Assembly: GCF_002087085.1 (NCBI RefSeq)
Contig: NZ_MWQY01000022.1
Coordinates: 1 to 57,831, forward strand
Direction of reading: 5' to 3'
DNA length: 57,831 bases
Shown: in pieces, positions 24,761 through 55,615 of the stretch
How the letters are laid out: the number at the start of each line of letters is the position of its first letter
Numbering within the stretch: position 1 is the stretch's first letter
Position numbers and translations under genes: made by a program
Notes under the pieces: model-generated
Database searches by the model: none
Seen by the model: only the letters and a program-made list of their open reading frames with translations
What the model was told of the DNA's origin: nothing

Positions 24761-24783
24761 TTCATATATCCTCTTCCTGTTGA

Positions 24784-34746: not shown

Positions 34747-37701
34747 TCAGTAATACTCCCGGATATACCCAAACGCCCTATCGAACAAATCCTGATCCTT
34801 AATTTTATACTTCACGTATATCACTTTGCGAAGAGCTTTCTGTACTTCCCTCTCTCCTGCATTTGTACCCTGCCAGCCTGGGAACCTAACGAACCTGACG
34901 ATTTCATCAATATCATTGACGATACGCTCTACAACAACCGGTGTCTTCCCGTTCTTAACCTCAATGAACAGTTCTGTTAAAGCGGCTTTTGCCTTCTCTT
35001 GCTCATCTTCAGGTTCGACTTGCTGTTCCGCCTGGACGACCTCCTTCGCCAGGGTCAACAGTTCCTTGAGGAAATCGAGGCTGTGGAGCAGGCCCTGTTC
35101 GTGCCGCTCCTTGAGCTTTTCGAGGCGTTCGCCCAGGGCGACAAACTTCGGATTGTCCTTGTGCTTGCGCAGGCGGGCGATGAGCTTGATCTCGATTTCC
35201 TTGGATTTTTTATCCGGGTCCTTGGCATCGAGCAGCCCTTCGAGGACCTCGGCGTCCATCACCAGGGTGTCCAGATCATCGCGCACTGTCTCCATATGCA
35301 CGTTCTCATGCACCAGCTCGATGGTCTTCGCCCCAAGGGCGTGCCAGAGCAGCTTACCGTTACCGCTCGGCGGCTTCACCGACTCATACACCTGGGTCAA
35401 CCACTTGTAGTCCGTTTCATAAAGGCCGAGACAGGGATCGGGAGACAGCGCCTCCCACAGCCGGGAGAGCACCGTGTATTCAGCCGCGAACTTGTCCCGG
35501 GTCTCGTTATCCGGCAGACAATCCTGCGCCGCTATCAGCCCCTCGTAGCCGCCAACGGTACGGTCCACGCCAGGGAAGAACGAAAGGCTCTTTGAGACCA
35601 CTCCAGGCAGCTCTTTCTTGAGGTCATCCAGATTGGTAATGACCTTCTGCACCGCCTTTTCATCGAAATCGAGGGCGGTGGCCACGTCATCGAAGATGCC
35701 GAGGTAATCCACGATCAGGCCGTGGGTCTTGCCGGGGTAGACACGGTTGGTACGGCAGATGGCCTGCAGCAGGTTGTGGTCCTTCATCGGCTTGTCGAGG
35801 TACATCACCTGCAGAATGGGCGCATCGAAACCGGTCAGCAGCTTGGAAGTGACGATCAGGAATTTGAGCGGATCGTTCGGATCGCGGAAGCGGTCGAGGA
35901 GCTTTTCTTCCTCGTCCTTGGCCAGTTTCCATTCCGCGTACTCGTCGGACTTTCCTCCCTGGATGTGCATGACGATGGCGCTGGCTTCCGGCCCGAACAG
36001 CTCGTCCAGGGCCTTCTTGTAGAGCACGCAGCACTCCCGGTCGAAGGTCACCACCTGGGATTTAAAACCGTTCGGCTCTACCTTTTCCTGGAAGTGCTTG
36101 ACGATGTGCTGGCAAATGGTGTTCACCCGCGCCGGGGCCTTAATTAGAACCGCCATCTTGGCAGCCCGTTTGGCCAGGTCGTCACGATCCAGCTCGCTCA
36201 GTTCATCGGTCATCTGGGAGTAGGCTTCGTCGATGGCGTCCTTGTTGATGTGCAGCTTCACGTCCACCGCCTCGAAGTGGAGCGGCAGCGTGGCCTTGTC
36301 CCGGATCGAGTCCTGGAACGAGTAACGGCTCATATAGCCCTGCTCATCTTCATCCGCGCCGAAGGCCCAGAAGGTGTTGCGGTCCCGCTTGTTGATCGGC
36401 GTGCCGGTCAGGCCAAAGAGAAAGGCGTTGGGCAGCGCGTCGCGCATCTTGCGGCCTAGGTCGCCCTCCTGGGTGCGGTGCGCCTCGTCCACCATGACGA
36501 TGATGTTTGATCGCTCGTTCAGGCGGCCGTCCGCCTCGCCAAACTTGTGAATGGTGGTGATGATGATCTTGCGGGAATCAGCCGCCAGCAGGCTTTGCAG
36601 CTCCTGCCGAGTGTCCGCTCCGATCATGTTCGGGATATCGGCGGCGTTGAAGGTGGCGGTGATCTGGGTATCCAGGTCGATGCGGTCCACCACGATCATC
36701 ACCGTGGGGTTGCCGAGCTTGCGGTGCATCCGCAGCTTCTGCGCTGCGAACACCATCAGCAGCGACTTGCCCGAGCCCTGGAAATGCCAGATCAGGCCCT
36801 TCTTGGGATAGCCCTTGACCACGCGGGCCACCATCAGGTTCGCGCCTTCGTATTGCTGATAGCGGCAGATGATCTTGATGCGCCGGTGCTTCTTGTCGGT
36901 GGCGAACAGGGTGAAATTCTGCAGGATATCCAGCACCACATGGGGGCGCAGCATGGAGCGGATGGAGCGCTGCACGTCCGCCAGCGTCCCCTCGGCCTTG
37001 TTATCGCCCTCGTGCCATGGCCCCCAGATATCGATGGGCATGCGCGCCGAGCCGTAGCGATAGCACTTGCCCTCGGTGGCAAAGGAGAGGACGTTGGGCA
37101 CGAACATCTGCGGCACGCTTTGTTCATAGCCGTTATGGATGTCGCTGGCCCCATCCACCCAGGTCACCGCCGGGCGCACCGGCGTCTTGGCCTCGCCGAC
37201 CACCAGCGGGATACCGTTGACCAACATAATAATGTCGAAGCGGCGGCCGCCTTCCTTGACCGGATAGACCCACTGGTTGGTAACCACGTAATCGTTGTTG
37301 CTGAGATTCTCGAAGTCGATCAGCCGCACCGGCGTGTGTTCGCCACGCTCACCAAAGGGCATGGACTTCTCGCCCCGTAGCCATTCGGCGAACAGTTCGT
37401 TGGCCCGCACCAGGCCCTCGCTCTGCACCGACAACGGAATGGTCCGCAGGCGGTAGAGCACCTCGTCGGCGCGGTCGGGCTGGGCCTTGATTTCCGGGTT
37501 CAGGCGGATGAGGGCGTCGCGCACCATCGACTCCACCAGCACGTCGGAGTGCTGACGGGGCAGCTCCTCGGCGGACACGAAGCGCCAGCCTTTGATCTCA
37601 CCACCGTAGCTGGCGAGCGCTTCGGCAACCATGTTCGAAGTCACGCCGCCGCAGAGCGTGTCGAGAACCATCTGTTCGACTGTGTTTTCTTCGTTAAACA
37701 T
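34747..37701 (-). CDS. hsdR: Type I restriction endonuclease subunit R
   Basis: D...VNGIPLVVGEAK nuclease motif, WHFQGSGKS, VDEAHR, LTGTP, LLTGFDAP, QAICRTNR. Confidence 0.96.
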   Translation of the reverse strand: MFNEENTVEQMVLDTLCGGVTSNMVAEALASYGGEIKGWRFVSAEELPRQHSDVLVESMVRDALIRLNPEIKAQPDRADEVLYRLRTIPLSVQSEGLVRANELFAEWLRGEKSMPFGERGEHTPVRLIDFENLSNNDYVVTNQWVYPVKEGGRRFDIIMLVNGIPLVVGEAKTPVRPAVTWVDGASDIHNGYEQSVPQMFVPNVLSFATEGKCYRYGSARMPIDIWGPWHEGDNKAEGTLADVQRSIRSMLRPHVVLDILQNFTLFATDKKHRRIKIICRYQQYEGANLMVARVVKGYPKKGLIWHFQGSGKSLLMVFAAQKLRMHRKLGNPTVMIVVDRIDLDTQITATFNAADIPNMIGADTRQELQSLLAADSRKIIITTIHKFGEADGRLNERSNIIVMVDEAHRTQEGDLGRKMRDALPNAFLFGLTGTPINKRDRNTFWAFGADEDEQGYMSRYSFQDSIRDKATLPLHFEAVDVKLHINKDAIDEAYSQMTDELSELDRDDLAKRAAKMAVLIKAPARVNTICQHIVKHFQEKVEPNGFKSQVVTFDRECCVLYKKALDELFGPEASAIVMHIQGGKSDEYAEWKLAKDEEEKLLDRFRDPNDPLKFLIVTSKLLTGFDAPILQVMYLDKPMKDHNLLQAICRTNRVYPGKTHGLIVDYLGIFDDVATALDFDEKAVQKVITNLDDLKKELPGVVSKSLSFFPGVDRTVGGYEGLIAAQDCLPDNETRDKFAAEYTVLSRLWEALSPDPCLGLYETDYKWLTQVYESVKPPSGNGKLLWHALGAKTIELVHENVHMETVRDDLDTLVMDAEVLEGLLDAKDPDKKSKEIEIKLIARLRKHKDNPKFVALGERLEKLKERHEQGLLHSLDFLKELLTLAKEVVQAEQQVEPEDEQEKAKAALTELFIEVKNGKTPVVVERIVNDIDEIVRFVRFPGWQGTNAGEREVQKALRKVIYVKYKIKDQDLFDRAFGYIREYY

Positions 37702-38893
37702 TATCCCCCCGCAACGGCCCTTGAGTCAGGCTCCTTTGTAACTCAACCGTGTCCTGAAGGTGCTTTTCAGCCTCCTCAAGCTTCTTTTCAATTTCATTCA
37801 GCTTTTGGGCTGCTTCTATTTGGTCACTCAATTTAGGTAGAGGGATTTTTAGCTTCTTGAAGTCCCTCAAAGAAAATCTCTGACGCGTTCCTCGAATGAT
37901 GATTTCGTTCAGTGAGTCTCGTCCCGGCTTCGAGTTAAAAAAGAACTTGAGATATTCCGGATTTACTTTTTGGGTATTAACCCTCAAGCGGATAACATCC
38001 TGGGTGACAATCGCATCAGGTTCCTTCTCGGGGTATATGCTTGCGATTCCTGGTGGATCTCCCACTTTACTAAAAAGAATATCCCCTGGAATCGTCTTGC
38101 ATGCCTTTAACTCTTCCGCTTTTTCAGACGTCACACAAACATTCTCCTGTCGTATATATCTTCCATCTTTCACATCTCTGACATAAATAACTGGGACACC
38201 TTCATCCGTAAGTTCTTTGGTTAACAAATTGCTCCCAAACGGGCCGTTTGTAAAACTCGAAGCCTCGCTGCTGGCAAGTTTGTTCATTTCAACAAATGCA
38301 CCGTTTACTTTGGCATTCAGCGCCACCTCATTTGCACAAACATTGAATAAGTTCGCCACATTGAGAGTCACTTCTCTCCATACCTCCACCGCCTCATCCG
38401 CCGCCCACAGGATCTCGGCAATGCGCTTCTGTTCATCGAGCGGCGGCAGCGGAAATTCAAAACCCTGCAACGCCGTCCAACTGGTTCTCGGCGACAGCGA
38501 TCCAGCCGAGGTGTCAAGCGCATAATCGAAGAAGGCATCGCTCTGGCAGATAAATGGCAGAAGCTCCGGCAGCAGTACCTTTCTGTTCTTCGGTTCAAAC
38601 GTCAGGATATCCCCGGAACAAATACCCTCAAACTCGGCAAAGGCGACCTTGCGTTGATAAGCCCGTCGCTTGCCGAAGAGCGTCTGTCCCGGTACGAACT
38701 TGCGGGTAAACGAGGTGCCATCCGCAACGGAGTTCCAGCGCCGGATATGCAGATTATCGGGTTCAATGTGTTCGAGCCCGACGATTCTTTCAATGTCATT
38801 GGTCTCGGGATCGCGCTCCACGAGGTTGGCGTTCTTCACCACCTCGCCGAACTTGACCATCTTCCAGCTGGGCCTCAGGGATTGTCTACTCAT
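37694..38893 (-). CDS. hsdS: Type I R-M specificity subunit S (two TRDs)
   Basis: WKMVKFGEV start, PLPPLDEQKRIAEIL central conserved region, GPFGS, IPLPKLSDQ. Start ATG 38893 overlaps the upstream stop (ATGA). Confidence 0.93.
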   Translation of the reverse strand: MSRQSLRPSWKMVKFGEVVKNANLVERDPETNDIERIVGLEHIEPDNLHIRRWNSVADGTSFTRKFVPGQTLFGKRRAYQRKVAFAEFEGICSGDILTFEPKNRKVLLPELLPFICQSDAFFDYALDTSAGSLSPRTSWTALQGFEFPLPPLDEQKRIAEILWAADEAVEVWREVTLNVANLFNVCANEVALNAKVNGAFVEMNKLASSEASSFTNGPFGSNLLTKELTDEGVPVIYVRDVKDGRYIRQENVCVTSEKAEELKACKTIPGDILFSKVGDPPGIASIYPEKEPDAIVTQDVIRLRVNTQKVNPEYLKFFFNSKPGRDSLNEIIIRGTRQRFSLRDFKKLKIPLPKLSDQIEAAQKLNEIEKKLEEAEKHLQDTVELQRSLTQGPLRGDNV

Positions 38894-40290
38894 TTGGCAC
38901 TCTCCTCTGAAATAGCCCAAGGTACAGCTTCCGTTTCTCCTGCCCATTTATGCATGCGAACCCTATTCGCATATCGTCCTTGATATTTCATCAACCGCAA
39001 CAGGCACATCTCCACATACCACTGGGACAAGTTCCATGCATCGAATTCGGCCCTTGGTTTAAGTTCTCGCTTCTTTTTAGAATGTACAAGCTGATTCCTG
39101 ATGATGGTTATGGCATGAAAGGCATCCTCAAATTTTTGGCCATTGACATCCTCCTTGATGGAACCGAGAATATCCGGAATCTCATGGGGTAAATCCATTA
39201 GAGTGGCCAATAGTCGGATCTGATCAGAAGCCCTCAACTTTCCTGGTTGGAAGGCTTCCTCGGAAACTGCCTTTTTTACCTGTGTAGCGTAGATCCAGGA
39301 AAGCTTCTCCAATGTGGACTGAGATAGAATCAACGCAGAATCTGCACTCAGATGGCCTCTACCGGCAAGGTTTGCCTGTAGATACCAATAGATCACTTCT
39401 GGCAGCACTTCTTTCCATGACAGGTCTATCCATAAGTCCCAAAATCCTTTGAATACATCTAAAAGATGATGCGCCTGTGGATGTGGACTCCACCATGTCA
39501 GGCTGTTGTTATGTGATAACGGGTCGCTGCCTCTAAGTATCCCCCATTTTTCACGCAGGCAAATGTCATCGTTCGATAGGAGTCTGATATTACCAATAGG
39601 CTGCCAGTGTCCTCTGGCAAAAGAAAGAAAATGATGCAGGCAATTGATGATATCTTGCGCCTCATTCCAATCCATCGGTTCACCATTAGTTTTCTGAATG
39701 CACCCGGCATGGGTGGCCGCCAAACCACCTGTCTGCTTTATGGTTTCGCCCCACTCTTTGGTTTTGCTGTGGGCCGTGATTTGTATGTGCCATTGCTCAT
39801 GTGTCATTTCGATCTGTCCGCAGCGCCACCAGCCCATAGTCTTGCCTTCTTCATTTGTTCTTTTAACCTTTTTGTCTTGATCACCGTAAAAGACCGGAAA
39901 AGCAAATAGAACGAACTCAAGCCGTGTTCCAGAGTCTGGTGAGTGTACAATATCAAGAGGCTCCATCAGCGGGATCCAAGTTGAGTGGTTTTCGTCGTTA
40001 TCGTGGTTTAGGCATTGGATGGGTTCCTGCCCCGTAAACTGTACAAACGCCGTCCCATTAAACGCTGCACGCAGGACATCAGATGACGGTATGCCTGAGA
40101 GTGACAGATGTACTCGATCTTTGGGCAGAAAAATTTGAGTCCCATGCACATCGATCTGCTTCAACTCTTTAAACCGAGCACCTCCCCCATCTTCAATCCA
40201 AAAATCTGCCTTAGCCGTTCCCAGATTGACAGGAAAACCCGGACCCTGCGAAAAAGCATCGGGTAATTGGACATTGTTTGGATTAGTCAT
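38890..40290 (-). CDS. Putative HEPN-domain protein (ApeA/YopA-like architecture)
   Basis: Beta-rich N-terminal region, then YWYLQAN...SQSTLEKL and IRNQLVH (Rx4H) near the C-terminus; coupled to hsdS. Confidence 0.65.
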   Translation of the reverse strand: MTNPNNVQLPDAFSQGPGFPVNLGTAKADFWIEDGGGARFKELKQIDVHGTQIFLPKDRVHLSLSGIPSSDVLRAAFNGTAFVQFTGQEPIQCLNHDNDENHSTWIPLMEPLDIVHSPDSGTRLEFVLFAFPVFYGDQDKKVKRTNEEGKTMGWWRCGQIEMTHEQWHIQITAHSKTKEWGETIKQTGGLAATHAGCIQKTNGEPMDWNEAQDIINCLHHFLSFARGHWQPIGNIRLLSNDDICLREKWGILRGSDPLSHNNSLTWWSPHPQAHHLLDVFKGFWDLWIDLSWKEVLPEVIYWYLQANLAGRGHLSADSALILSQSTLEKLSWIYATQVKKAVSEEAFQPGKLRASDQIRLLATLMDLPHEIPDILGSIKEDVNGQKFEDAFHAITIIRNQLVHSKKKRELKPRAEFDAWNLSQWYVEMCLLRLMKYQGRYANRVRMHKWAGETEAVPWAISEESAK

Positions 40291-40476
40291 CTGTTGCCCT
40301 TACAATTCTCAAGAGAATGCTTCATAAGCCAGCCGTCCTGGCTGGTATCGATTGTTTTCAGAACACTATTTTCCCTTCTCCGGAGAGTATATTTGTGCAA
40401 CCATCGGTTGCATTCGCAGTCATTAACAATCATCTGCCAAAAATTACTCTGACTCTTCCCTCCCATATTCATCATC

Positions 40477-41577
40477 TTAACTTGTTTCCTCTTCGTCCCA
40501 GACAAAGTTTCTTGTAAGATCCTTAAAATAGCTCCATTTACCTGTCAGGAAACGAAATCGTCCGGCTACAATGCCGGGACTGACACCAAGCTTGCGAGCC
40601 AACTGTATTACTTCATCCTTGGTTGTGATCAAGGCTATCTGAGTATGATATTTTGATGGAATAAGAGTCTCGGAGGCGAACCTGTCAGCCTTCTGCTCTT
40701 CAGGGTCTGTACTGTTATTTTCAGCTATATAAAGCCGCTGTTTCTTCCCATGGAGTATATGATCTGCCTCGTGGAAAAATGAGAACCAGAAGATATCTTC
40801 ACCTTTGCCTCTGAGATTCAAGATGATCATCGCCTTTTGTGGTGAAAGCCATTTAGATGCTCCGTTCCAGGGTACTTTTTTTATCTCCTTCACTAATGCC
40901 AGAGCTACACCCGCTTCCGCGCAGTACCGACGCATTGTATCCACGAACTCATCCGGCTTCTTAATGGTTAAACCGCGAATAGCTTTTATCGCCTTCTCGA
41001 ACCTGTACTTATCGAAGGGTGCACATTCAATCTGCTGGGCCTGCAGCTCGCCTAATCTTATCCATACGGATGCCGGTCCGGGACGTGTCTCGAAACAGGT
41101 CGACCGTCGGGCAGCGACCTTCGGCGACTCCCACACATCGTGCCAGGCAGATACGCTGGATACCCCGTAAAACTTCAGGGTTTCTTGAAGAAGTTTTATC
41201 TTGTCTTTCTCATCCGAAATCACGCTTCGCTCTATCAGTTCTCTGGTAGGGATATCCTTCAACCAGTCAATACCTCTTTCGAATTCCCTGGATTGCTCAA
41301 TTTTGCTGAGCTGCTCTCGGTATTGCATTTCAAGGTTGTTCCACATCCGAGCCGGAACACCGGTGACAAGTTCCAGTTTATTCGCAGTTTCAAAGGTTAT
41401 AGGCTGTTCACCCTTCAGAATTCGAACAATCGTCTGTTCGGTAAGTCCCGTTCGGGTAGCCAAGTCTTTCTGGGTCATACTGAGATTCTCTATAACTTCA
41501 GCTATAGTCTCACCAGGAGGAACGGCATAATTGGGTATGAACTCATAAGCTTTCTTTGCTTTTATAGGGGCGGCCAT
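40477..41577 (-). CDS. higA: HigA-type antitoxin: XRE HTH fused to an ImmA/IrrE (M78) peptidase-like domain
   Basis: PPGETI...MTQKDLATRTG...ITFETANKLE...WNNLE; FWFSFFHEADH (HExxH); EEQKADRFA. Confidence 0.88.
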   Translation of the reverse strand: MAAPIKAKKAYEFIPNYAVPPGETIAEVIENLSMTQKDLATRTGLTEQTIVRILKGEQPITFETANKLELVTGVPARMWNNLEMQYREQLSKIEQSREFERGIDWLKDIPTRELIERSVISDEKDKIKLLQETLKFYGVSSVSAWHDVWESPKVAARRSTCFETRPGPASVWIRLGELQAQQIECAPFDKYRFEKAIKAIRGLTIKKPDEFVDTMRRYCAEAGVALALVKEIKKVPWNGASKWLSPQKAMIILNLRGKGEDIFWFSFFHEADHILHGKKQRLYIAENNSTDPEEQKADRFASETLIPSKYHTQIALITTKDEVIQLARKLGVSPGIVAGRFRFLTGKWSYFKDLTRNFVWDEEETS

Positions 41578-41579
41578 AA

Positions 41580-41936
41580 TCAGTTCCTCCGTTGTGTTTT
41601 CCTGTCATGGGTGTCTTCAATGGCAATGATTTCGATTTCCGTGACAGCTTTCAGATCAATACCTCCATCATCTTTGCAAGGTATCGGTTCATCAGCTGGA
41701 ATAAACAGCAGTCGCTGAGGATATTCAAGGTCGACCGAGAAAACACCCCTCCGGTTGGTCAATTCATGACAGCGGGTAGGCGGAAGATGGGAAAGATCCT
41801 CAAGCACGTTTGCGGCTTTCAATTCCATCAGACGCTGCTGCAACTTTTTTTTCATCTTAAGTCCTAAGGACTTGTTCATTTCTCGTTCTTCAGAACATAG
41901 TTTTTGAAGTTTCTTCGTTTTAAAATATATCAGCAT
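41580..41936 (-). CDS. higB: HigB/RelE-like toxin (killer-suppression type)
   Basis: IYFKTKKLQK, RCHELT, FSVDLEYPQRLLF, IEIIAIEDTH; lies upstream of the antitoxin. Confidence 0.85.
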   Translation of the reverse strand: MLIYFKTKKLQKLCSEEREMNKSLGLKMKKKLQQRLMELKAANVLEDLSHLPPTRCHELTNRRGVFSVDLEYPQRLLFIPADEPIPCKDDGGIDLKAVTEIEIIAIEDTHDRKTQRRN

Positions 41937-41997: not shown

Positions 41998-43488
41998 TTA
42001 TTCTCCCTCCAATATCTTGAATAACCCTTCCATCAATCCCCGCAAAGCCATCGAGCTTTGCTGCCAGTTGGCAATGGCCTGTTTGAGGTTGACTGTTTCT
42101 GTCACTCCGTTGCCACTGCCGTTTCCGTTGTCCGCCCGCACAAAGAGCGGGATGCTGAGGTTGTTGGCCTTCTCTCGAATCTCGTCATTACCGACCACCC
42201 GGGCAAAGCCGTCCTCGTGGCAAAAGGTCTGGTAGACGGAGACAATGTGCTGGATGTGTTCGTCAGTTAGGAAGCTCTGTGCCCGCTCGCGGGTCACCTC
42301 GTTCACCGCGTTGATGAAGAGCACCTTGTTCCTGCGCTCCTTGGGTTTGTTCATCCGGCAGATAACAACGCAGGCTTCCATGGGCGAGTTGTAAAAGAGG
42401 CTGGGACCGAGGCCAAGCACGCACTCCACCACGTCGTGGGCGACCAGCTTCTCACGCATAGCCAGTTCTTCATTGCGAAAGAGGACGCCATGCGGAAACA
42501 GGATGGCGCAGCGGCCACTCTTGGTCTTCATGCTCTTGATGATGTGCTGCCAGAAGGCATAGTCGGCTCGTCCCTGAGGCGGAGTGCCGTAGATGTTTCG
42601 GCCCCACGTATCGGTGGACCAGGCATCACGATCCCACTGCTTGATGGAATACGGCGGATTGGCCAAGACCACATCGAACCGCATGAGTCGATCGCCTTCG
42701 ACAAAGGCGGGGTTGGCCAGGGTGTCACCCCGGACGATGCGGAAATCCTCGATGCCGTGTAGGAACAGGTTCATCCGACCGATGGCCGAGGTGAGCAGGT
42801 TGCGCTCCTGGCCGAACAGCTGCAGGTTCCGCCACTCCTTCTTCTTCCGCTTCAGATGGGCGACTGCAGAGAGGAGCATGCCCGCTGACCCGCAGGTGGG
42901 GTCATAGATCGACTCACCGGGTTTGGGTTCGAGCATCTCGGTCATCAAATGAACCACGGTGCGATTGGTATAGAACTCCGCAGCAGTGTGGCCGGAATCA
43001 TCGGCGAACTTCTTGATCAGAAACTCGTAGCCTACGCCCAGCTCATCTTCCGGGCAGTTGAAGAGTGAAAGCTTCTGCGAGCTGAAATGCTCAATGAGCT
43101 CGCGCAGCATGTGGTCCGGCAGGCGGTCCTTGTTGGTCCACTGGGCATCGCCGAAAACCCCGAACAGTGTGTCGGGGTTAGCAGTCTCAATCGCCCGCAG
43201 GGCATCCTGAATGACCTTGCCCACGTTTTTGACCTTGGTGCGGGTGGCCTTCCAGTGGGCGTCTTCCGGAATCTGGAAGCGGTGCTGTTCGGGGAGAGCA
43301 GCGTATTCCTGATCGCCGCCGGATTCCTCCAGCGCATCGGCCAGTTCCTCGTCGTACACGTCGCACAAGCGCTTGTAGAACAGCAGAGGAAAGATGAACT
43401 GCTTGTAATCCCCGGCGTCGAGATAGCCGCGCAACAAGGTGGCCGCGCCCCAGAGGTAGGATTCGAGTTGAGATTGGGAGATAGCCAT
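41998..43488 (-). CDS. hsdM: Type I R-M methyltransferase subunit M2 (NPPY; predicted m4C)
   Basis: LESYLWGAATLLRG, AEFYTNR, YDPTCGSAGML, VLANPPY, LFPHGVLFR, NLSIPLFV. Confidence 0.95.
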   Translation of the reverse strand: MAISQSQLESYLWGAATLLRGYLDAGDYKQFIFPLLFYKRLCDVYDEELADALEESGGDQEYAALPEQHRFQIPEDAHWKATRTKVKNVGKVIQDALRAIETANPDTLFGVFGDAQWTNKDRLPDHMLRELIEHFSSQKLSLFNCPEDELGVGYEFLIKKFADDSGHTAAEFYTNRTVVHLMTEMLEPKPGESIYDPTCGSAGMLLSAVAHLKRKKKEWRNLQLFGQERNLLTSAIGRMNLFLHGIEDFRIVRGDTLANPAFVEGDRLMRFDVVLANPPYSIKQWDRDAWSTDTWGRNIYGTPPQGRADYAFWQHIIKSMKTKSGRCAILFPHGVLFRNEELAMREKLVAHDVVECVLGLGPSLFYNSPMEACVVICRMNKPKERRNKVLFINAVNEVTRERAQSFLTDEHIQHIVSVYQTFCHEDGFARVVGNDEIREKANNLSIPLFVRADNGNGSGNGVTETVNLKQAIANWQQSSMALRGLMEGLFKILEGE

Positions 43489-45815
43489 TAATCTGTCTCC
43501 ATCCTAATACGATCAGGCAATGTTGTTAGCAGTCGTAGAACATTGGCAGTGTCTTCAAAATGCTGATGGACTTCAGGTGCATGCTCATAGTGATATGACA
43601 CAAATCGCTGTTCGTCTCCTTTAGTCCTGCTATAGAAATAGCAAGCGATTGCATCTTGGTGAGGGGGAGCAATCATGCGAATAAATGGCAGTAGCTGTAA
43701 TCCCTTTGAAGCACCTTCCGCGAGTAGATAAAGCTTGCCAGAAATCATAGGCGTTGCGACAGTTCTTGTTACGTGCTCAAACTGACTATTGGCACCCATG
43801 ATACGAAGTGAATCACATGTATACTGGTCTTCGATGTATTCCATTTTACCCATCTGGAGGAGTTCAAATTGATTCCATCCGTGGCCCCAGAGATTGCGTA
43901 ACTCTTCAATCATTGCACGTAAATCATTCTCTATTGCTGCTGCCTGGGCTTTTCCCAAGGCGCCACCGTGCCCGCCATACGTATTACGCATTTGATTGGC
44001 ACGAGAAATGATTTGTGAAATTATTGGTGCACTTAGTTTTTCCAACCATGATGTGGAGACAAGCGAATATAAGCTTATTGCAACGGGAGCATCATCCGTT
44101 TTGGCAAGCATAACCCTCGATAGTGCACTGAGCTTCTCTACTACAACTTTCCACGTCCCAAAGGTTGCACGAGCAAAGGTCAGATGCTGAACAGACAATG
44201 CTTCCAGTATTTCTTTATGAGCTTCTTGCCAGATAATTATGTGACTCGAGAATGCACTCAGGTGGACCGTGGCAAGGAATTCCGCAAGTGCCTCGAAGAA
44301 ATGGAGCAGAATACTGAATCTAATCCGGGGATCGTCCTCAGCAACTCGATGGCACCATAAAATTGAAGCAAGAGGAAATGGGAGAGTAGCAATCCAGTCT
44401 TCGTATCGCACCTCGTTGTTGATAGTCTGTGCGCGTATCAAGATTTCTTCACTGGAGTGATAACCAGTCCAACACATAGCTTCAATTTCCCGGGTTTCAT
44501 TTCTTAGAGCTTCAAGATGACGCAGGGCTTCGAGTACCTCAAGCTGTGCATTCAAGGGAGGTATATAGCACATCAGGCGATCACAGACATCCTTTGTAAT
44601 ACGCTGCGAACCAGAAGGACTACCTACCCCTGCAGCTTGTAAAGCGAGCTTACCAAGATCGTTCTTAAACCACTGCAATAAATAAGATACATGAACCTTG
44701 GATTCGTCCAGGATAAAACAAGTGCATTTTCCTTTGTTTAAAGAAGCTTCTAAATTGTCCGCAGTGAAGAATTTTCCTGATTGTGATAACAGCAAGGTAT
44801 TCGCAGAGATAACCGAAGTCTGGTCAAGTTCTTTTAGACTAAGATGGATCACGTTCTTGATTAAATCAGTAAATGGTATCGGAGATAACAACGTCTTCCG
44901 AAGCTTTTGGAGAACCCGGTATTCTGCTTCCAAGGCTTCAAAATCAACGTACTTGGATAATGCAATCATCCGCCCAAGACTGGGGTGCATATCTGATTTA
45001 TTGTTTTTGTAGTTTTTTAGAAGTCGTTCACTATGCTTTTGATCGTCCGCTACCTGACCTACAAAAATGTCTGTTTGAGGTCCATGCTCTATAACCAAAA
45101 TCTGAGAGGAGATCGAAGTATTAAGTCGTGTTCCATACGGAACATTTAAGCTTGCTTTTATGCAGCAACCAGTTCTATGGATCGCCTCAATAAAGGGCTT
45201 GTGTTTTAGCGCGCGAGGAGACATGACGATGGCCAAGGTTCCTTCTGCAGCAAGTTTATGGCATGCCCATATAGTAATGTATTGCGCCAGATCCAGAAGA
45301 TTTTCTTCTTTCAGTATTGGAGGTAGATTTTCCCGATTAATATGCTTGCCGAGAGGAGGATCAGCAATGATTAGATCATATCGCTCTTGAGAATCAAGAG
45401 CAGGATCGAGTACATTGCCTCGCTGGATATTTGCTTGATCTTTAAGAAGCACAGAAGCGATTTCGCAGCTGTTACTGTCGAGATCAATGCCCTTTGCTAC
45501 TTTAGGTTTATGTGCAGTAATCACCTTGTGAAGCATAAGCCCACTGCCACAAGTGGGATCGATTACAGAGGTAGGTTTAACAAGAACAGCCAGATCAGCC
45601 ATAAAGCGACTAATCATTGGCGGTGAAACAAATTCACCAGCTCCCCGAGAATCAGCTTGCCCAATGACAGTTTCGACCACATCAGGTGTTAGCTCACCAG
45701 AGATTTCCCCCCTTGCCAGAGCGAGTAAGCCCCGCCATGGATCAGGTGGTCCATGACCTCTTTGAGAATCAATATATCGCGAGAGGGATTGTAGTGTTTT
45801 AGATGTCGAGCTCAT
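43488..45815 (-). CDS. 775-aa fusion: N6-MTase-like domain (DPPL), TRD-like region, helical C-terminal domain with an RNx4H motif
   Basis: GEFVSP, IDPTCGSG, IIADPPLG, then YIPPLNAQ (HsdS-like), then LLHFFEAL...MRNTYGGH. Overlaps both flanking hsdM genes (ATGA and TAATG). Confidence 0.75.
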   Translation of the reverse strand: MSSTSKTLQSLSRYIDSQRGHGPPDPWRGLLALARGEISGELTPDVVETVIGQADSRGAGEFVSPPMISRFMADLAVLVKPTSVIDPTCGSGLMLHKVITAHKPKVAKGIDLDSNSCEIASVLLKDQANIQRGNVLDPALDSQERYDLIIADPPLGKHINRENLPPILKEENLLDLAQYITIWACHKLAAEGTLAIVMSPRALKHKPFIEAIHRTGCCIKASLNVPYGTRLNTSISSQILVIEHGPQTDIFVGQVADDQKHSERLLKNYKNNKSDMHPSLGRMIALSKYVDFEALEAEYRVLQKLRKTLLSPIPFTDLIKNVIHLSLKELDQTSVISANTLLLSQSGKFFTADNLEASLNKGKCTCFILDESKVHVSYLLQWFKNDLGKLALQAAGVGSPSGSQRITKDVCDRLMCYIPPLNAQLEVLEALRHLEALRNETREIEAMCWTGYHSSEEILIRAQTINNEVRYEDWIATLPFPLASILWCHRVAEDDPRIRFSILLHFFEALAEFLATVHLSAFSSHIIIWQEAHKEILEALSVQHLTFARATFGTWKVVVEKLSALSRVMLAKTDDAPVAISLYSLVSTSWLEKLSAPIISQIISRANQMRNTYGGHGGALGKAQAAAIENDLRAMIEELRNLWGHGWNQFELLQMGKMEYIEDQYTCDSLRIMGANSQFEHVTRTVATPMISGKLYLLAEGASKGLQLLPFIRMIAPPHQDAIACYFYSRTKGDEQRFVSYHYEHAPEVHQHFEDTANVLRLLTTLPDRIRMETD

Positions 45816-47299
45816 GCCATCAACCCTTCTTTTTTAAGCAGCGCCTTCAACCGATCCTCGGCTGCATACGCCGCCTGCAGCGATTCCTTGAGATTGGCGA
45901 TGGCCTGATCGACGGTCATGGAGTCCTCCTCGATCACCGGCTCCACGTAGCGGGGGATGTTCAGGTTGAAATCGTTCTCGCGAATCTGGTCCTGCGTGAC
46001 CACCCGGCAGATCCCTTCCACATCCTGATAGCCCTCGTACCAGCGATGGATGTTGTCAACGTGTTCCAGCAGCAGCTCGTTCTGAGCGCGGCCGGTCTTG
46101 AACTCCTTCGAGGCGTCGATGAAAAGCACCTTCTGGCGGTGGGCCTTGGGCTTGCTGTCGCGGAAGACCAGGACGCAAGGCGCGAGACCGGTTCCGTAGA
46201 AAATATTCTGACCGAGACCGATCACCGCTTCGAGCATGTCCATTTCCAGCAGCTTACGTCGAATCTCGCCCTCCTTGGACATGCGGAACAACACGCCATG
46301 GGGAAGAACCACGGTCATTCGCCCGGTCTTTCGTGCCATGGACTTGATCATGTGCTGAACCCAGGCGAAGTCGCCGGATTTGGCTGGCGGCAACCCGGCA
46401 AAGTTCCGGCCGTAAGGGTCGTTGATCCAGATGTCGTCCCCCCACTTTTCCAGGGAGAAGGGAGGATTTGCGATGACACAGTCAAAGGTGGCGAGGCTGT
46501 CGCCTGAATAAAAGGCAGGCAAGCGCAAGGTGTCGCCGCGTTCAATATGAAAATCTTCCGCACCGTGGAGAAAGAGGTTCATCCGGGCGATGGAGGATGT
46601 GGTCAGGTTCTTTTCCTGGCCATAAAGCTTGCCCAGCATGAGGTTCTCGTCGCCGCCATGCTCTTTGACATGGTGCAGCGCTTCGAGGAGCATGCCGCCA
46701 GTCCCGCAGGCTGGGTCATAGATGGTTTCCCCGGCCTTGGGTGCAAGGATGCGAACCATTAGCGAGACCACGGAGCGTGGGGTATAGAATTCACCGGCCT
46801 TTTTGTTGGTGAGGTCGGCAAATTTCTTGATTAGGTATTCATAGGCCTGGCCGAGAATGTCCGCCTTGCTGTGCTCATTGCCCAGATCAAGCGACGAGAA
46901 GTGTTCTATCAGGTCCTTGAGCAACGCATCCGAAAGGCGTTCCTTGTTGGTCCACTGGGCATCGCCGAAGATGCCATGCAGGGTGTCCGGGTTGGCCTGC
47001 TCGATGCAGCGCATCGCCTTCTGGAGTGCATGGCCGATATTGGCGCTCTTGGCCCGGACATCTTTCCAGTGGCAGCCCTCCGGAACCTGGAACCGGTGGT
47101 TCTCGGGGAACTGGGCAAATTCCACGTCGCCGTCTGATTCTTCCAGGGCCACGTCATACTCCTCGTCATAGACGTCGGAGAGCCGCTTGAAGAACAACAG
47201 CGGGAATATGTAGGTCTTGAAATCGGCCGCGTCGACAGGACCACGCAGGATGTTCGCGGATTCCCAAAGGTATGATTCGATGGCGCTTAAACTTAACAT
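45812..47299 (-). CDS. hsdM: Type I R-M methyltransferase subunit M1 (NPPF; predicted m6A)
   Basis: IESYLWESANILRG, GEFYTPR, YDPACGTGGML, IANPPF, LPHGVLFR, NLNIPRYV. Confidence 0.96.
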   Translation of the reverse strand: MLSLSAIESYLWESANILRGPVDAADFKTYIFPLLFFKRLSDVYDEEYDVALEESDGDVEFAQFPENHRFQVPEGCHWKDVRAKSANIGHALQKAMRCIEQANPDTLHGIFGDAQWTNKERLSDALLKDLIEHFSSLDLGNEHSKADILGQAYEYLIKKFADLTNKKAGEFYTPRSVVSLMVRILAPKAGETIYDPACGTGGMLLEALHHVKEHGGDENLMLGKLYGQEKNLTTSSIARMNLFLHGAEDFHIERGDTLRLPAFYSGDSLATFDCVIANPPFSLEKWGDDIWINDPYGRNFAGLPPAKSGDFAWVQHMIKSMARKTGRMTVVLPHGVLFRMSKEGEIRRKLLEMDMLEAVIGLGQNIFYGTGLAPCVLVFRDSKPKAHRQKVLFIDASKEFKTGRAQNELLLEHVDNIHRWYEGYQDVEGICRVVTQDQIRENDFNLNIPRYVEPVIEEDSMTVDQAIANLKESLQAAYAAEDRLKALLKKEGLMA

Positions 47300-47400: not shown

Positions 47401-48768
47401 TCAACCTGTGATTGCATTTGTAACAGATGGAATGGTCAATCGCCTGTAAAATCGGTAATACATGATGAACGTAATCCCCGAATCAATCGCAATACCTGTT
47501 CCGAACATGACCGTAATACTGACCAGAGTGGGGCTATATAAACCAAGCTGGAATAGAACAAACAGACTACCGTAAAAGAGGCTGTTCACAATCAATGACT
47601 GGTAGAGCATCAGATCTGTTCGCCCTCTTCCGTAGAAGATGCTGTCGGCAATGTTGTTGAATGCAAAGGTTATGTAAAAACCAAGGGAGATAAGACTCAG
47701 CTGAAAGACCTTCTCCCAGTCAGCAACTCCCATAACCTCCCGCATGAACGAACGCCACAGCGGGATAGTGATGAGCCAGCCAAGGACAAAAACAAGAGTT
47801 AGAACACCATACCCGAAAGCCTTCGTCCTTATAGCATCTACATCCTCAGCAGTATCCCGCTTTATTAGCTCTCCCAGGGCGAGTACCGGCACAAGAAGCC
47901 AGCCCCATATAAAATTGTTGGTAACCCAGAATGTCCCCTGCTCCTGCACCATGTTTACGAGCCGGATTACCATTAAAATGAAGGCTGCATTCCGAACGAA
48001 CGACTCGAGACCTGAAATCCCGCCGACCCGAAACCAGGCTCTCAGGCAACCCAGATCAAGTTTGAAACTGTAACCGGGAACCAGGTAACCTTCTCTTCTG
48101 AGCATATTAACTAAAATACTCAGGAGGATGAAATTAACAATGATGTTGGTAATAGCAATACCATTCACCCCCAACTGGAGGGAGAAAGGCAACGAACTTA
48201 AGAAAATTGTATCAAAGAGAACCGAGAGTACGAGCTGAATTCCGAGAATGAAAAGCAACCTGATCTCTCTCTTCAACACAACCAGGGTAAGTGTGAGAAA
48301 TCGTACCAAGGCAGCGAAAAGTGCAGATACTGCCTTCAGGCGAATGTACCGCACAGTAGCCTCGACGAGTTCGGTCTTCTGTGCCATGAACACAATCATC
48401 GGCCGGGCAAATAGCAGGGTAAGTATTGAAAGGATTCCATAAAGCGCTGCAGTGAGGATAAACCCGTTCGATACAGCGTTGTTGAAACGGCTTCTGTCAT
48501 GCAGGAATCTTCCGATCAGGAAAAACATCGGCAGTATAAGTGATTCATGAACCACCTCGTAGGTAATATTCAGCCAGGCAAGCTGTGAGGCTATATTGTA
48601 TCCCCAGTCTCCCGGTAACGTTCCGAGAAAATGGATACGAACTGTCATGTAGATAGTTGGAAGCAGCCCCATCAATATAAGAACACCGAGCAGTTTGAAG
48701 TTGATCTGTTTGAATGATGTCCCAGTTGAAAATATAAGATTCCCGATATTACCCTGCAACTTTTTCAT
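47401..48768 (-). CDS. MATE-family (Na+-driven) efflux transporter
   Basis: About 12 TM segments, LGVNGIAITNI, GLESFVRN, IFYGRGRT. Start ATG 48768 with AGGGGG RBS. Confidence 0.75.
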   Translation of the reverse strand: MKKLQGNIGNLIFSTGTSFKQINFKLLGVLILMGLLPTIYMTVRIHFLGTLPGDWGYNIASQLAWLNITYEVVHESLILPMFFLIGRFLHDRSRFNNAVSNGFILTAALYGILSILTLLFARPMIVFMAQKTELVEATVRYIRLKAVSALFAALVRFLTLTLVVLKREIRLLFILGIQLVLSVLFDTIFLSSLPFSLQLGVNGIAITNIIVNFILLSILVNMLRREGYLVPGYSFKLDLGCLRAWFRVGGISGLESFVRNAAFILMVIRLVNMVQEQGTFWVTNNFIWGWLLVPVLALGELIKRDTAEDVDAIRTKAFGYGVLTLVFVLGWLITIPLWRSFMREVMGVADWEKVFQLSLISLGFYITFAFNNIADSIFYGRGRTDLMLYQSLIVNSLFYGSLFVLFQLGLYSPTLVSITVMFGTGIAIDSGITFIMYYRFYRRLTIPSVTNAITG

Positions 48769-49645
48769 AATTCCCCCTGATATTCTGTTGCACTTCACAG
48801 GCCTCCACTAACCTGCTCCGAAACGCTTCACGAAGATCCTTCCTTATCGACTTTGGAGGTTTAACACCAACAACTGACCGCCTTCCACAAGCAATATCGA
48901 AAAGAAGCTCTTTGCAGATAATATGCTCCTTCGGCCGATTTTCGATCATCGCAAATCCCTCACGGATTGCCTTGATCCGGTCAAAAAGCAATCTTTGAGA
49001 ATGAGACAGAGCATTCAGCCTGTTCTCAAGATTTCGCGACCTTCGTGATTGTCGGTCCGGCTGGAATCTTCTTCTTTCCATAGCATTCGCAAGTTCTCCA
49101 ACGAGCCCCCTGTCTTCAATGCTTTTTATCAGAATTGTGTAGAGATCAATCAAATGGCGCACATCCCCGGCCGCATAAGCTGCTGCATCAGGAGGCAGAG
49201 GCCGCGTCCTCCAGTCAGATTTCTGGTATTTCTTTTTTGTTTCCGATACTTGAACAGCAAGATATCTGCTGAGTACAGAGTTGAGTCCACCAACGTTCGT
49301 ATCCAGAACCCCTGCTATTGTGTGGAGGTCGATAACCGGATACATAACTATTCCATAAAGGCGGTAAACCAGCGCCATATCGCTGCCGGCATCAAAGAAT
49401 ACTTTGATAAACTGTTTGTGAGTTAATGTGGTGCAAACTTCTTCTTCCGATACCGCAAGGGCATCAATGAGATAGACTTCTTTCCCGTCATAGAGCTGAA
49501 TCAGGCAAAGCTTCTCTCCATACCCATGCCTGCTGTAATCTGCTTCAAGATCCATCCCGACAATTTTTACTTGTTCATTATAAAGATGCTTACGAAGTTC
49601 AATCAGACCTTCTTCAGTGTCTATAAAAAAATAATTCTTCATCAT
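48749..49645 (-). CDS. RNase D-like DEDDy 3'-5' exonuclease with HRDC domain
   Basis: GMDLEAD, LCLIQL, GSDM, QKSDWRTRPL, YAAGD; C-terminal REGFAMIENRPKEHII HRDC-like region. Start reassigned to 49645 (GGGGAG upstream). Confidence 0.85.
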   Translation of the reverse strand: MMKNYFFIDTEEGLIELRKHLYNEQVKIVGMDLEADYSRHGYGEKLCLIQLYDGKEVYLIDALAVSEEEVCTTLTHKQFIKVFFDAGSDMALVYRLYGIVMYPVIDLHTIAGVLDTNVGGLNSVLSRYLAVQVSETKKKYQKSDWRTRPLPPDAAAYAAGDVRHLIDLYTILIKSIEDRGLVGELANAMERRRFQPDRQSRRSRNLENRLNALSHSQRLLFDRIKAIREGFAMIENRPKEHIICKELLFDIACGRRSVVGVKPPKSIRKDLREAFRSRLVEACEVQQNIRGNYEKVAG

Positions 49646-49706
49646 ACTCCCCAATTTCATCTGTAAGAAAACACCCCGAGGCAGATCTGCCCCGGGATGA
49701 GATTCT

Positions 49707-50018
49707 TCAGTCAGTGCAAGCAGAAAATCTGAATAACGGACAGCGCTCATCATTACGATAGACCGTAACAACACCACCGTCTTCCGCTATAAGAACACTG
49801 CAATTCTGAAGCTCCATACTCTTGCCTGTCGAATCCAATACCAGAAATGGCGATGGCAAAATGGTAACCAGATAACGTCCACCGCTAAGCTCATACACGG
49901 TTCCACGGTGCAGGATTGTGCTTACATCATCAGGGGAGATCCCACGCTCCACCATTCTCTGACGAGCGTGGTTCGATAAAGAGATACGATCCGGTGACCC
50001 GGAAAACCTACATGGCAT
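49707..50018 (-). CDS. DUF4258-like small protein (RelE/BrnT-like toxin fold)
   Basis: LSNHARQRMVERGISPDDV...VVTVY signature; GAGGAGG RBS before ATG 50018. Confidence 0.75.
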   Translation of the reverse strand: MPCRFSGSPDRISLSNHARQRMVERGISPDDVSTILHRGTVYELSGGRYLVTILPSPFLVLDSTGKSMELQNCSVLIAEDGGVVTVYRNDERCPLFRFSACTD

Positions 50019-50112
50019 ATTAGCCCTCCTCAATAAGGTTTTCAGAGATCAACTCTCAGGTGAGCCATGGTGAGCTCTTAGAGCAGACTTCTGTAATATT
50101 TTTATGAGTTCC

Positions 50113-52863: not shown

Positions 52864-52972
52864 ATCTTACTCCCAAAACGATCATTGGGAGGCCCCTGTG
52901 AAGAACAGGGACGGGCCAGACCAAACAGTCTGCTTAACACCCATTCTGGGCGTCTATTCCCTAACCAGGTTA

Positions 52973-53001
52973 ATAGTAGCCTATAATGTTTGCGCAGTCA
53001 A
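52973..53001 (-). promoter_or_regulatory. Sigma70-type promoter for the cargo region
   Basis: Minus strand TTGACT-17 bp-TACTAT, about 110 bp upstream of the 916-aa gene. Confidence 0.65.
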
Positions 53002-53024
53002 TAAAAACCTGGCGTGCTACAAAA

Positions 53025-53513: not shown

Positions 53514-53552
53514 GTATACCCCTTCAACTAAAGTTTCCATTGAGCTAAATAC

Positions 53553-53651
53553 GGTGACAGGTGACACGTGGTGACAGACAAATCAAGGTTATATGCAAAT
53601 AGTATGTCCTATCGAGCCTTAACCCAAAAATGCCTGACATCACCCGTCACC
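53553..53651. repeat. Iteron-like cluster (putative replication origin)
   Basis: GGTGACA at 53553, 53560 and 53570; inverted TCACC/GTCACC at 53640 and 53646; AT-richer spacer; immediately downstream of the helicase gene. Confidence 0.6.
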
Positions 53652-53660
53652 CCGACATCG

Positions 53661-55574: not shown

Positions 55575-55593
55575 GGGTAGACCTCATAAATAC

Positions 55594-55615
55594 CTCGAGA
55601 AATTTCTCGAGAAAT
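55594..55615. promoter_or_regulatory. Perfect palindromic operator-like site upstream of xis
   Basis: CTCGAGAAATTTCTCGAG (18-bp palindrome) overlapping ATTTCTCGAGAAAT. Confidence 0.6.

Follow-up and report, generated by a model that had tools for sequence, protein, structure and literature searches.

The 57,831-nucleotide window analysed here, positions 1 to 57,831 of contig NZ_MWQY01000022.1 (assembly GCF_002087085.1), carries on its minus strand a type I restriction-modification (R-M) operon in which the gene for a protein of 775 amino acids (aa) lies between two hsdM genes (Table 1). According to the open reading frame (ORF) list and its translation, this 775-aa gene is intact, with an ATG start and zero internal stops. 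It overlaps both of its neighbours: the TGA stop of the upstream gene, hsdM-a, and the ATG of the 775-aa gene form an ATGA, and the TAA of the latter and the ATG of the downstream gene, hsdM-b, form a TAATG. The GC content of the 775-aa gene is 0.443 and that of its third codon positions (GC3) 0.38, against GC contents of 0.569 and 0.577 and GC3 values of 0.75 and 0.76 in the hsdM genes and a GC3 of 0.80 in hsdR. Read 5' to 3' along the minus strand, the island starts with genes for a tyrosine integrase, a D5-type primase, a 916-aa protein, an RNase D-like 3'-5' exonuclease and a MATE transporter, which are followed by hsdM-a, the 775-aa gene, hsdM-b, a 118-aa ORF, a gene joining an Xre helix-turn-helix (HTH) domain to an M78 peptidase, an ApeA-like gene, hsdS and hsdR. 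The first 34 kb of the window are ordinary chromosome (a sensor kinase, UvrD, an efflux system and giant Ig-like proteins), and this flank together with the gene order places the 775-aa gene in an island of about 23 kb that contains a cargo-filled type I R-M operon. A genome search found the gene in single copy, with no paralogue in its own genome; among 61 genomes searched only the window's own had it, and it was found in none of five other species of the genus. The 775-aa gene is an accessory gene, borne on an island and compositionally foreign to the hsd genes that frame it.

Table 1. Features of the window, with positions counted from its first letter. The positions of the motifs were verified by exact translation of the minus strand.
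Feature	Positions	Strand	Description
775-aa gene (P0001)	43488..45815	-	HsdM-like domain, single HsdS-type target-recognition domain (TRD) with conserved-region (CR) helix, HEPN-like domain, small beta-barrel
Methyltransferase-like domain	44946..45653	-	residues 55-290; gamma-class N6-adenine methyltransferase-like Rossmann domain; Pfam N6_Mtase
Motif X, EFVSP	45621-45635	-	S-adenosylmethionine (SAM) binding
Motif I, DPTCGSG	45540..45560	-	residues 86-92; SAM binding
Motif IV, DPPL	45351..45362	-	residues 152-155; non-aromatic
Single HsdS-type TRD and CR helix	44466..44945	-	residues 291-420 and 421-450
HEPN-like helical domain	43881..44408	-	residues 470-645; contains LPFPLASILW, FFE and RNTYGGH
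LPFPLASILW	44355-44384	-
RNTYGGH	43968..43988	-	Rx5H with N after R (R610, N611, H616)
Small OB-like beta-barrel and two short helices	43560..43880	-	residues 646-752, strands in the AlphaFold2 model
hsdM-a	45812..47299	-	495 aa, intact, NPPF (VIANPPFS in alignment); Pfam HsdM_N and N6_Mtase, E 2e-100
hsdM-b	41998..43488	-	496 aa, intact, NPPY; 51% identity to hsdM-a
hsdS	37694..38947	-	417 aa, two TRDs; Pfam Methylase_S; PADLOC Specificity_I, E 4e-126
hsdR	34747..37701	-	984 aa; Pfam HSDR_N, SWI2_SNF2, T1R_D3-like; PADLOC REase_I, E 8e-130
Cargo block from hsdM-b to hsdS	38890..41936	-	118-aa ORF, Xre-HTH and M78 peptidase protein, weak ApeA-like HEPN protein
Xre-HTH and M78 peptidase protein	40477..41577	-	PADLOC PD-Lambda-2_B, E 3.3e-30; NCBIfam HigA antitoxin, E 1.5e-13
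466-aa protein	38890..40290	-	HEPN_Apea, E 9e-4; ApeA_NTD1, E 1.6e-3; both below cutoff
Promoter-like site	41952-41924		TTGACA-17-TATATT (11/12), the best of the region
Rest of the island	47401-57640	-	integrase, 202-aa ORF, D5-type primase, 180-aa ORF, 916-aa protein, then RNase D-like exonuclease (weak BrxHI-region match) and MATE transporter (NF045539, E 4.7e-166)
Giant Ig-like repeat proteins	13901-29514	-	3619 aa and 1576 aa (Big_7, Big_13, Big_3_3)
Glycosyltransferase	3230-4324	+	tRNA-queuosine alpha-mannosyltransferase N-terminal domain (QTMAN_N, E 3.7e-57); also a weak match to the conflict-system GT4 family

A simple pseudogene or a chance ORF was considered and rejected because the gene is intact and conserved; its architecture of about 775 aa recurs in 647 database proteins and 59 genomic loci, more than chance would produce. 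A 186-nt contig of a metatranscriptomic library is identical to positions 45492-45677, and identical DNA pieces occur in a marine metagenome; that library may hold DNA, and the contig is at most a weak hint of expression. Other metatranscriptomic pieces, which fall on the hsdM genes, are 90-95% alike and hence derive from relatives. A promoter and terminator scan found no excess over shuffled sequences (18 against 15.4 and 14 against 15.4).

The part of the protein that holds the most strictly conserved motif is its C-terminal module. The C-terminal part of the window protein and those encoded at 49 loci, 50 unaltered sequences in all, make up an alignment (A2) with which residues 441-775 were modelled by AlphaFold2 (AF2) at a predicted local distance difference test score (pLDDT) of 93.0 and a predicted template modelling score (pTM) of 0.89. 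The model falls into three pieces, namely a helical domain at about residues 470-645, an eight-stranded beta domain at 646-752 and two short helices. Within the RNTYGGH of the helical domain, the R is found in 50 of the 50 sequences of A2 and the N and the H in 49 each, the lone exception (L057) reading RNDWKH, an Rx4H; throughout the 50 sequences four or five residues separate R from H, and an N follows the R. P479, P481, L482, A483 and L486 of LPFPLASILW, F507 and E508 of FFE, S520 and W555 are likewise invariant. The HEPN signature has been defined as an Rx4-6H motif that usually has a polar N, D or H after the R (PMC3710099). When the C-terminal model was compared with 48,161 chains in a wide, exhaustive VIA-align search, HEPN proteins took 11 of the 14 top rows. 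The Roquin HEPN region came first (Z 9.0, rmsd 3.0, 122 residues aligned), with Csm6 (four entries), HI0074, AF_0298, SO_3166, LsoA and an AMPylated HEPN toxin below it at Z 6.7-8.0; RnlA and another HEPN toxin rank lower (Z down to 6.2), and a second look with VIA-align placed the HEPN domain of AF_0298 (2hsb) first, at Z 7.2. The predicted fold alone is suggestive and not decisive; because the invariant RNx3-4H motif tips the balance beyond what these modest Z scores give, we favor the HEPN assignment and consider it probable, with good confidence, that the helical domain is a HEPN domain. The beta-barrel behind it, a part absent from the first-pass annotation of this sequence, resembles the OB (oligonucleotide/oligosaccharide-binding) domains of PriB, SSB, MCM, Mop and the proteasome (Z 5-6.3 over about 50-60 residues), and we tentatively describe it as OB-like.

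The N-terminal half is related to the methylase of type I systems. Residues 54-260 match Pfam N6_Mtase (E 1.1e-10; 41.8 bits with a cutoff of 20.4), and over motifs X to IV the protein is 26% identical to the neighbouring HsdM (BLASTP, E 7e-7); HsdM_N (PF12161), which both adjacent HsdM proteins carry, gave no match on the 775-aa protein at E <=0.01. The best Foldseek matches of the full-length AF2 model (pLDDT 87.1, pTM 0.64) are the type I HsdM structures 7eew, 3lkd, 2okc and 5ybb (E 5e-12 to 7e-10), and next come PacII, CamA and M.TaqI, with an alignment that spans the methylase and the subsequent recognition domain. PADLOC Specificity_I models match residues 326-443 (E from 1.1e-5, the best, to 2e-3), and Pfam Methylase_S stays below its cutoff (E 0.0089, 16.7 bits versus 22). 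At the end of the TRD the conserved-region helix opens with IPPLNAQ (YLPPLxEQ in the consensus of the family); the motif PPLxEQ is characteristic of HsdS. The 775-aa protein has one TRD-like stretch and the HsdS of the same locus two, and BLASTP between the two proteins found nothing significant past the PPL motif. Judged by sequence and model, the N-terminal 450 residues appear to derive from a fused unit of modification (M) and half specificity (S) subunit.

Both SAM-binding motifs, X (EFVSP) and I (DPTCGSG), are kept in this unit, and in a full-length alignment of 50 homologues D86 of motif I is found in 49 and P87 and G92 in all 50. The catalytic motif IV, (N/D)PP(Y/F/W), is not matched by the DPPL of the 775-aa protein, whereas the flanking HsdM proteins have NPPF and NPPY. 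Among the 50 homologues, position 152 is D in 28, N in nine, E in eight and H in three, and position 155 is L in 29, F in 15, M in three and I in two, so that L, M or I stands there in 34; DPPL is common in the family, yet NPPF, EPPF and DPPF also occur. The first-pass annotation had described an AT-richer gene coupled on both sides to GC-rich hsdM genes, with a degenerate methyltransferase half followed by an HsdS-like TRD. The ATGA and TAATG overlaps and the GC3 values (0.38 versus 0.75-0.80) bear out the first of these statements and the Pfam, PADLOC and Foldseek matches the second, and DPTCGSG, DPPL, the TRD with its IPPLxxQ and RNTYGGH were all recovered at exact coordinates.

The family is large and widespread. 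A word-indexed search gave 647 proteins, nearly all of 745-800 aa, which are publicly named, where named at all, 'N-6 DNA methylase', 'SAM-dependent methyltransferase', 'predicted RNA methylase' or 'hypothetical'. A HMMER scan with A2 over 1.84 billion representatives matched 1822 clusters (at 50% identity) at E <=1e-3 and 888 at E <=1e-30; the C-terminal module stands at or near the C-terminus in all 150 among the matches listed. The 59 genomic loci come from many phyla of bacteria (Pseudomonadota, Chloroflexota, Bacteroidota, Planctomycetota, Cyanobacteria, Verrucomicrobiota, Bacillota, Actinomycetota, Acidobacteriota and others) and from archaea (Methanomicrobia, Methanobacteria and Thorarchaeota). 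That the gene is phage-borne was rejected, with one relative in 2.9 million viral contigs.

Constraint is distributed unevenly along these proteins. In the full-length alignment, mean pairwise identity is 0.51 in the HEPN-like domain, 0.49 in the beta-barrel, 0.41 in the CR helix, 0.37 in the methyltransferase (MTase) domain and 0.28 in the TRD, the least conserved part. Motifs I and IV are unrecognisable in seven loci (L028, L036, L037, L041, L044, L046 and L049), in each of which RNxxxxH is intact. The alignments indicate that the methylase part is under a relaxed, lineage-dependent constraint and the C-terminal module under a strict one, a contrast that fits a binding or sensing role of the N-terminal half and an enzymatic role of the C-terminal half.

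The C-terminal module also occurs on other partners. It is found on a genuine HsdM (L054, 763 aa; P0171, 956 aa), on HsdR (L058, 1378 aa), on a UvrD-like helicase adjoining a type III CRISPR locus (L057), on a Ser/Thr kinase of Actinomycetota (about 592 aa; L047, 8316-10091, and L052, 9194-10975), on a HARE-HTH and ResIII protein (L053), on a reverse transcriptase (RVT_1; P0228) and on DUF4116 repeats (P0254). HsdS-like, Macro, CHAT and HSP70 partners from an ESM Atlas structure search are leads only, with feature-search scores up to 0.84. Such promiscuity is how effector cassettes behave in conflict systems. Some side observations belong to these loci: both kinase fusions stand without R-M neighbours; in L058 (6761-17135) the module-bearing HsdR is followed by a 2082-aa DEAD/Helicase_C/MZB protein, and in L005 (3362-9781) a 2139-aa DEAD-box protein lies ahead of the family member, both being giant helicases.

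We determined the type I context of the relatives by tblastn with the Hsd proteins of the window and Pfam scans of the neighbours, within the fetched flanks. Type I R-M genes lie in the flanks of 25 of the 59 loci, and of 24 of the 47 that are at least 9 kb long; in 11 loci that were Pfam-scanned together hsdR was confirmed in all 11 and hsdS in eight. The usual order is hsdM, cargo, hsdS, a 775-aa-type gene and hsdR, the cargo of these operons including GmrSD, a HerA-like ATPase, Fic, DUF5655/NucS-like proteins and AAA_15. The family gene directly precedes hsdR in 11 loci, with a stop/start overlap in L002, L003, L018 and L031, and directly follows it in L027, L028 and L029, with an overlap in L027, and is thus beside hsdR in 14 of the 25 linked loci. 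Only the window and L001, a gammaproteobacterial metagenome-assembled genome with the same layout, have the family gene sandwiched between two hsdM genes among the 25, and this arrangement is lineage-specific. Between L001 and the window the identity is 86% for hsdM-a, 83% for hsdM-b and 87% for hsdR, and falls to 43-52% for the 775-aa gene and 32% for hsdS; the frame is thus conserved and its cassettes variable. Two further observations concern this frame. The locus pairs two divergent, intact hsdM paralogues with one hsdS and one hsdR, and L001 has the same pair. Its composition is mosaic, in that between positions 34747 and 47299 hsdR, hsdM-b and hsdM-a have GC3 values of 0.75-0.80 and the genes between them 0.38-0.56, a contrast also seen in L001, which suggests cassette exchange inside a conserved type I frame.

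Taken together, these results point towards the 775-aa protein as a self-contained sensor-effector, in which the M-S-derived half would sense and the HEPN-like half would act as a ribonuclease, forming a second line beside type I restriction; on the sequence and model evidence we give this reading a probability of roughly 55%. The M-S-like half would no longer serve mainly as a methylase; its binding partner would be DNA, an anti-restriction protein that mimics DNA, or else the R-M complex. Once this partner changes, the HEPN-like domain would be released, cut RNA and stop the infected cell, by abortive infection or dormancy. The protein would most likely be an anti-phage suicide switch that backs up type I restriction, and its gene rides as cargo in type I R-M operons. 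That the protein senses SAM, as the retained SAM motifs and the lost catalysis might be taken to mean, is pure speculation.

Several observations weigh against this reading. The ribonuclease activity, the toxicity, the autoinhibition and the trigger of the 775-aa protein are all proposals inferred from sequence and model. The Z scores of 6.7-9.0 lie in a range where helical bundles can match by chance, and bundles of G-protein-coupled (seven-helix) receptors are interleaved at Z 6.4-6.8. Foldseek gave no match of the C-terminal model in the PDB at E <=0.001, Pfam returned nothing on residues 461-775 even at E <=10, no NCBIfam or PADLOC model matched the C-terminal part, and the A2 profile found chance-level rows only among PDB sequences (best E 0.16). 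In hhalign, A2 reached probabilities below 1% with each of three single HEPN-type sequences (0.24% with the Csm6 of L048, 0.05% with the DUF4145 protein of L002 and 0.11% with the ApeA-like neighbour). Besides, 16 of the 50 homologues have an aromatic F or Y at motif IV, some of them a full NPPF, and could from their sequence be active methylases. The family gene is interrupted in three of the 59 loci (L001, L007 and L029), in L001 (9998-12320) by a frameshift near residue 445 that leaves ORFs of 465 and 293 aa; these interruptions may reflect real decay or (long-read) assembly error. No type I gene is seen in the flanks of 23 of the 47 loci of at least 9 kb, and five Methanomicrobia loci (L037, L041, L044, L046 and L049) share a neighbourhood that looks like housekeeping, with an 8-oxoguanine glycosylase gene directly downstream and an S-adenosylhomocysteine (SAH) hydrolase gene on the other strand. 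Pfam confirmed the SAH hydrolase in L037, L041 and L049, the three scanned for it, and the glycosylase in two of them (L037 and L041). The methylase motifs of the five family members are eroded, and their neighbourhood showed no R-M genes.

These points also qualify what the first-pass annotation had proposed. The HEPN resemblance it noted agrees with the VIA-align ranking, in which 11 of the 14 top rows are HEPN proteins, and finds no echo in Foldseek, the Z scores being modest. The R/H pair proved to be conserved (R in 50/50, H in 49/50), and the loss of the motif IV aromatic holds for part of the family, 16 of 50 homologues having kept that residue. Linkage to type I systems is seen in 24 of the 47 loci of at least 9 kb and in the HsdM and HsdR fusions, and is lacking in about half of the loci. 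A position between two hsdM genes turned out not to be a family trait, the usual place being next to hsdR.

Beside the general sensor-effector reading stand more specific explanations, the first three of which are also its candidate triggers. In a sharper form of what the first-pass annotation suggested, the M-S-like half might be an integrated decoy that mimics the DNA-binding groove of type I enzymes, so that binding of Ocr or ArdA would switch on the HEPN-like ribonuclease; the HsdM and HsdR fusions would then represent the guarded original and the 775-aa form a dedicated decoy in which catalysis is not needed. The drift of the methylase motifs under a retained fold and next to a retained C-terminal module, the fusion of that module to real HsdM and HsdR and the faster divergence of the 775-aa gene than of the flanking hsd genes would all suit a decoy, and the best structural match of the whole protein, 7eew, is a type I methylase solved with Ocr, a likeness of fold only and not of binding. 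Ronin provides a precedent, with HsdMS as a decoy whose catalysis is dispensable (bioRxiv 10.1101/2023.04.06.535777). However, binding of Ocr or ArdA by the 775-aa protein is conjectural, a single chain of M with one TRD is as like monomeric M.TaqI or CamA as it is like an M2S1 groove, type I genes are missing from the surroundings of half of the loci, and the methanogen subgroup looks vertically inherited. We regard such a decoy as possible, at clearly less than even odds. A broader form of the same idea, which we put forward as a rather doubtful one, is that of a widespread integrated decoy, in which a worn copy of type I M-S, joined to a HEPN and OB ribonuclease, would serve as bait for DNA mimics or possibly SAM depletion and shut down translation. 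If it were true, the HsdM and HsdR fusions would mark the ancestral guarded state, and the roughly 1800 clusters would amount to a widespread, unrecognised layer that polices attacks on restriction.

Alternatively, the protein may sense nucleic acid directly, the MTase-TRD half binding a DNA site and probing a flipped base, with foreign, unmodified or oddly modified DNA activating the ribonuclease. The N-terminal 450 residues do match DNA-bound single-chain adenine methylases, over 560-570 aligned columns for CamA and about 430 for M.TaqI, and the module also sits on the DNA enzymes UvrD-like helicase, ResIII and HsdR; such a sensor would work without neighbouring R-M genes. That the TRD is the most variable domain would be expected if specificity diversifies, but its gap fraction is 0.02 across the 50 sequences and its motifs are conserved. 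True HsdS TRDs are expected to be more variable than this. Furthermore, members with DPPL would be unable to mark self DNA themselves, and DNA binding is hypothetical. A direct nucleic-acid sensor seems to us possible, with about the same odds as the decoy.

A latent nuclease of the PrrC kind, kept silent by contact with the HsdMSR complex and firing when that complex is disabled, would follow an established paradigm (PMC3710099). Such a nuclease would suit the place of the gene directly beside hsdR in 14 of the 25 linked loci, the overlaps in L002, L003, L018, L031 and L027 and the coupling of the window gene to both hsdM genes, yet 23 of the 47 loci of at least 9 kb show no type I genes nearby. 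The protein has no ABC ATPase domain such as that of PrrC, and its contact with Hsd subunits would be conjecture by analogy. We consider this explanation unlikely.

Less likely again is that the protein is an M-S fusion which works as an accessory methylase and contributes a further methylation specificity, with a C-terminal module that is non-catalytic and regulatory or nucleic-acid-binding. Motifs X and I are intact in the 775-aa protein, N stands at position 152 in nine and F at position 155 in 15 of the 50 homologues, some with the full NPPF, and the public names 'N-6 DNA methylase' and 'SAM-dependent methyltransferase' say as much; however, the 775-aa protein itself has DPPL, several lineages have lost motifs I and IV and kept the C-terminal module, RNx3-4H, for which a passive domain would have no use, is under the strongest constraint, and the same module sits on kinase, reverse transcriptase and helicase partners. 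A housekeeping enzyme of RNA or DNA processing with no defence role, whose R-M location would be a by-product of cargo collection, fits the conserved Methanomicrobia neighbourhood with SAH hydrolase and 8-oxoguanine glycosylase and the much unrelated cargo of these operons (GmrSD, Fic, HerA-like, AAA_15), but is very improbable given a gene present in one of 61 related genomes, the integrase-bearing island of the window, neighbouring cargo that is itself of defence type and the fusions to HsdM and HsdR.

Other genes of the window deserve a short description. In the cargo block, the Xre-HTH and M78 peptidase protein matches component B of PD-Lambda-2, a system made of a HigB-like toxin, an Xre-HTH/M78 peptidase protein and a third component; only component B was found, PADLOC giving no match for either neighbour (118 and 466 aa). 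L001 has conserved counterparts of the 118-aa ORF (46%) and of the peptidase protein (41%), and the promoter-like site of Table 1 lies just upstream of the block. The 916-aa protein of the island has no Pfam, NCBIfam or PADLOC match; its ESM Atlas matches score below 0.9 and its Atlas model has a pLDDT of 0.44. In the chromosomal part, the two giant Ig-like repeat proteins stand beside a MacB/HlyD/OEP export set; they probably represent adhesins together with the system that secretes them.

Type I R-M operons are known for back-up effectors such as PrrC and Ronin, few of which have been worked out. In the family of the 775-aa protein, the most conserved part of a large set of proteins has no domain model, and the public names read 'methylase' or 'hypothetical'. 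The protein offers a clean single-gene test of a catalytic subunit turned sensor. Should its ribonuclease activity and trigger be confirmed, it would define a new HEPN family and give a handle on the detection of anti-restriction, and hundreds of entries called 'N-6 DNA methylases', which probably lack methylating activity, would have their annotation corrected.

No named system in Pfam, NCBIfam or PADLOC matches a methylase-TRD-HEPN-like protein, and in the full-text literature no methylase-TRD-HEPN protein is described, although the supplements of PMC3710099, which lay outside that search, could list the family under another label; the first-pass annotation, which recognised no named system, thus stands on this point. 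The closest known theme is that of PrrC, whose gene in the EcoPrrI type Ic hsd locus encodes a HEPN-type ribonuclease presumed to be a second line when restriction fails (PMC3710099). The two have in common a HEPN-type ribonuclease gene, predicted as such in our case, embedded in a type I R-M operon. They differ in that PrrC begins with an ABC-ATPase domain and lacks both methylase and TRD, whereas no ATPase domain of the PrrC type is among the Pfam, NCBIfam and PADLOC matches of the 775-aa protein; no sequence similarity between them was found, and the present family also occurs without R-M neighbours. In Ronin, which comprises HsdM, HsdS and RonA in E. coli ECOR55, ArdA or Ocr is sensed by HsdMS with no need for methylase catalysis, the motif IV variant F287G still working (bioRxiv 10.1101/2023.04.06.535777). 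The likeness lies in parts derived from a type I methylase acting as a sensor of anti-restriction, a shown feature of Ronin and a proposed one of the 775-aa protein. Ronin is set apart by its architecture, in which canonical HsdM and HsdS are distinct proteins and the effector is the tightly linked RonA, a membrane peptide of 61 aa, in contrast to one chain of degenerate M, one TRD and a HEPN-like domain, usually with hsdR present.

At least 16 HEPN clades have been linked to R-M systems as part of a multi-pronged defence (Anantharaman et al. 2013, PMC3710099), and the survey's account of them has these domains fused to endonucleases, helicases and ATPases 'but not to the methylases'. The present family, by contrast, has its HEPN-like domain on a methylase-like domain and, in L054 and P0171, on a genuine HsdM, and these HEPN-like methylase fusions are an exception to that generalisation. 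The reverse transcriptase fusion P0228, which joins RVT_1 to the C-terminal module, parallels AbiA, a reverse transcriptase with a C-terminal HEPN domain (PMC3710099, Table 1); P0228 has no match to the Pfam AbiA C-terminal domain at E <=1e-4, and the parallel is one of layout and not of homology. The 775-aa protein is like M.TaqI, CamA and type I HsdM in motifs X and I and, over residues 55-450, in fold and in the order of domains (Foldseek E 5e-12 to 1e-7), and it differs from them in its DPPL, in the lack of HsdM_N and in its extra C-terminal module of 330 residues. METTL14, a eukaryotic member of the MT-A70 family, is a non-catalytic methylase fold with a non-aromatic motif IV (EPPL) that serves as a binding scaffold; it is evolutionarily unrelated to the 775-aa protein and offers an analogy only. 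Altogether, the 775-aa protein is not a member of PrrC, of Ronin, of the catalogued R-M-linked HEPN fusions or of the M.TaqI/CamA-type methylases. What is known is the theme, a HEPN back-up effector linked to R-M; what is new here is a HEPN-like family and the architecture in which it is found.

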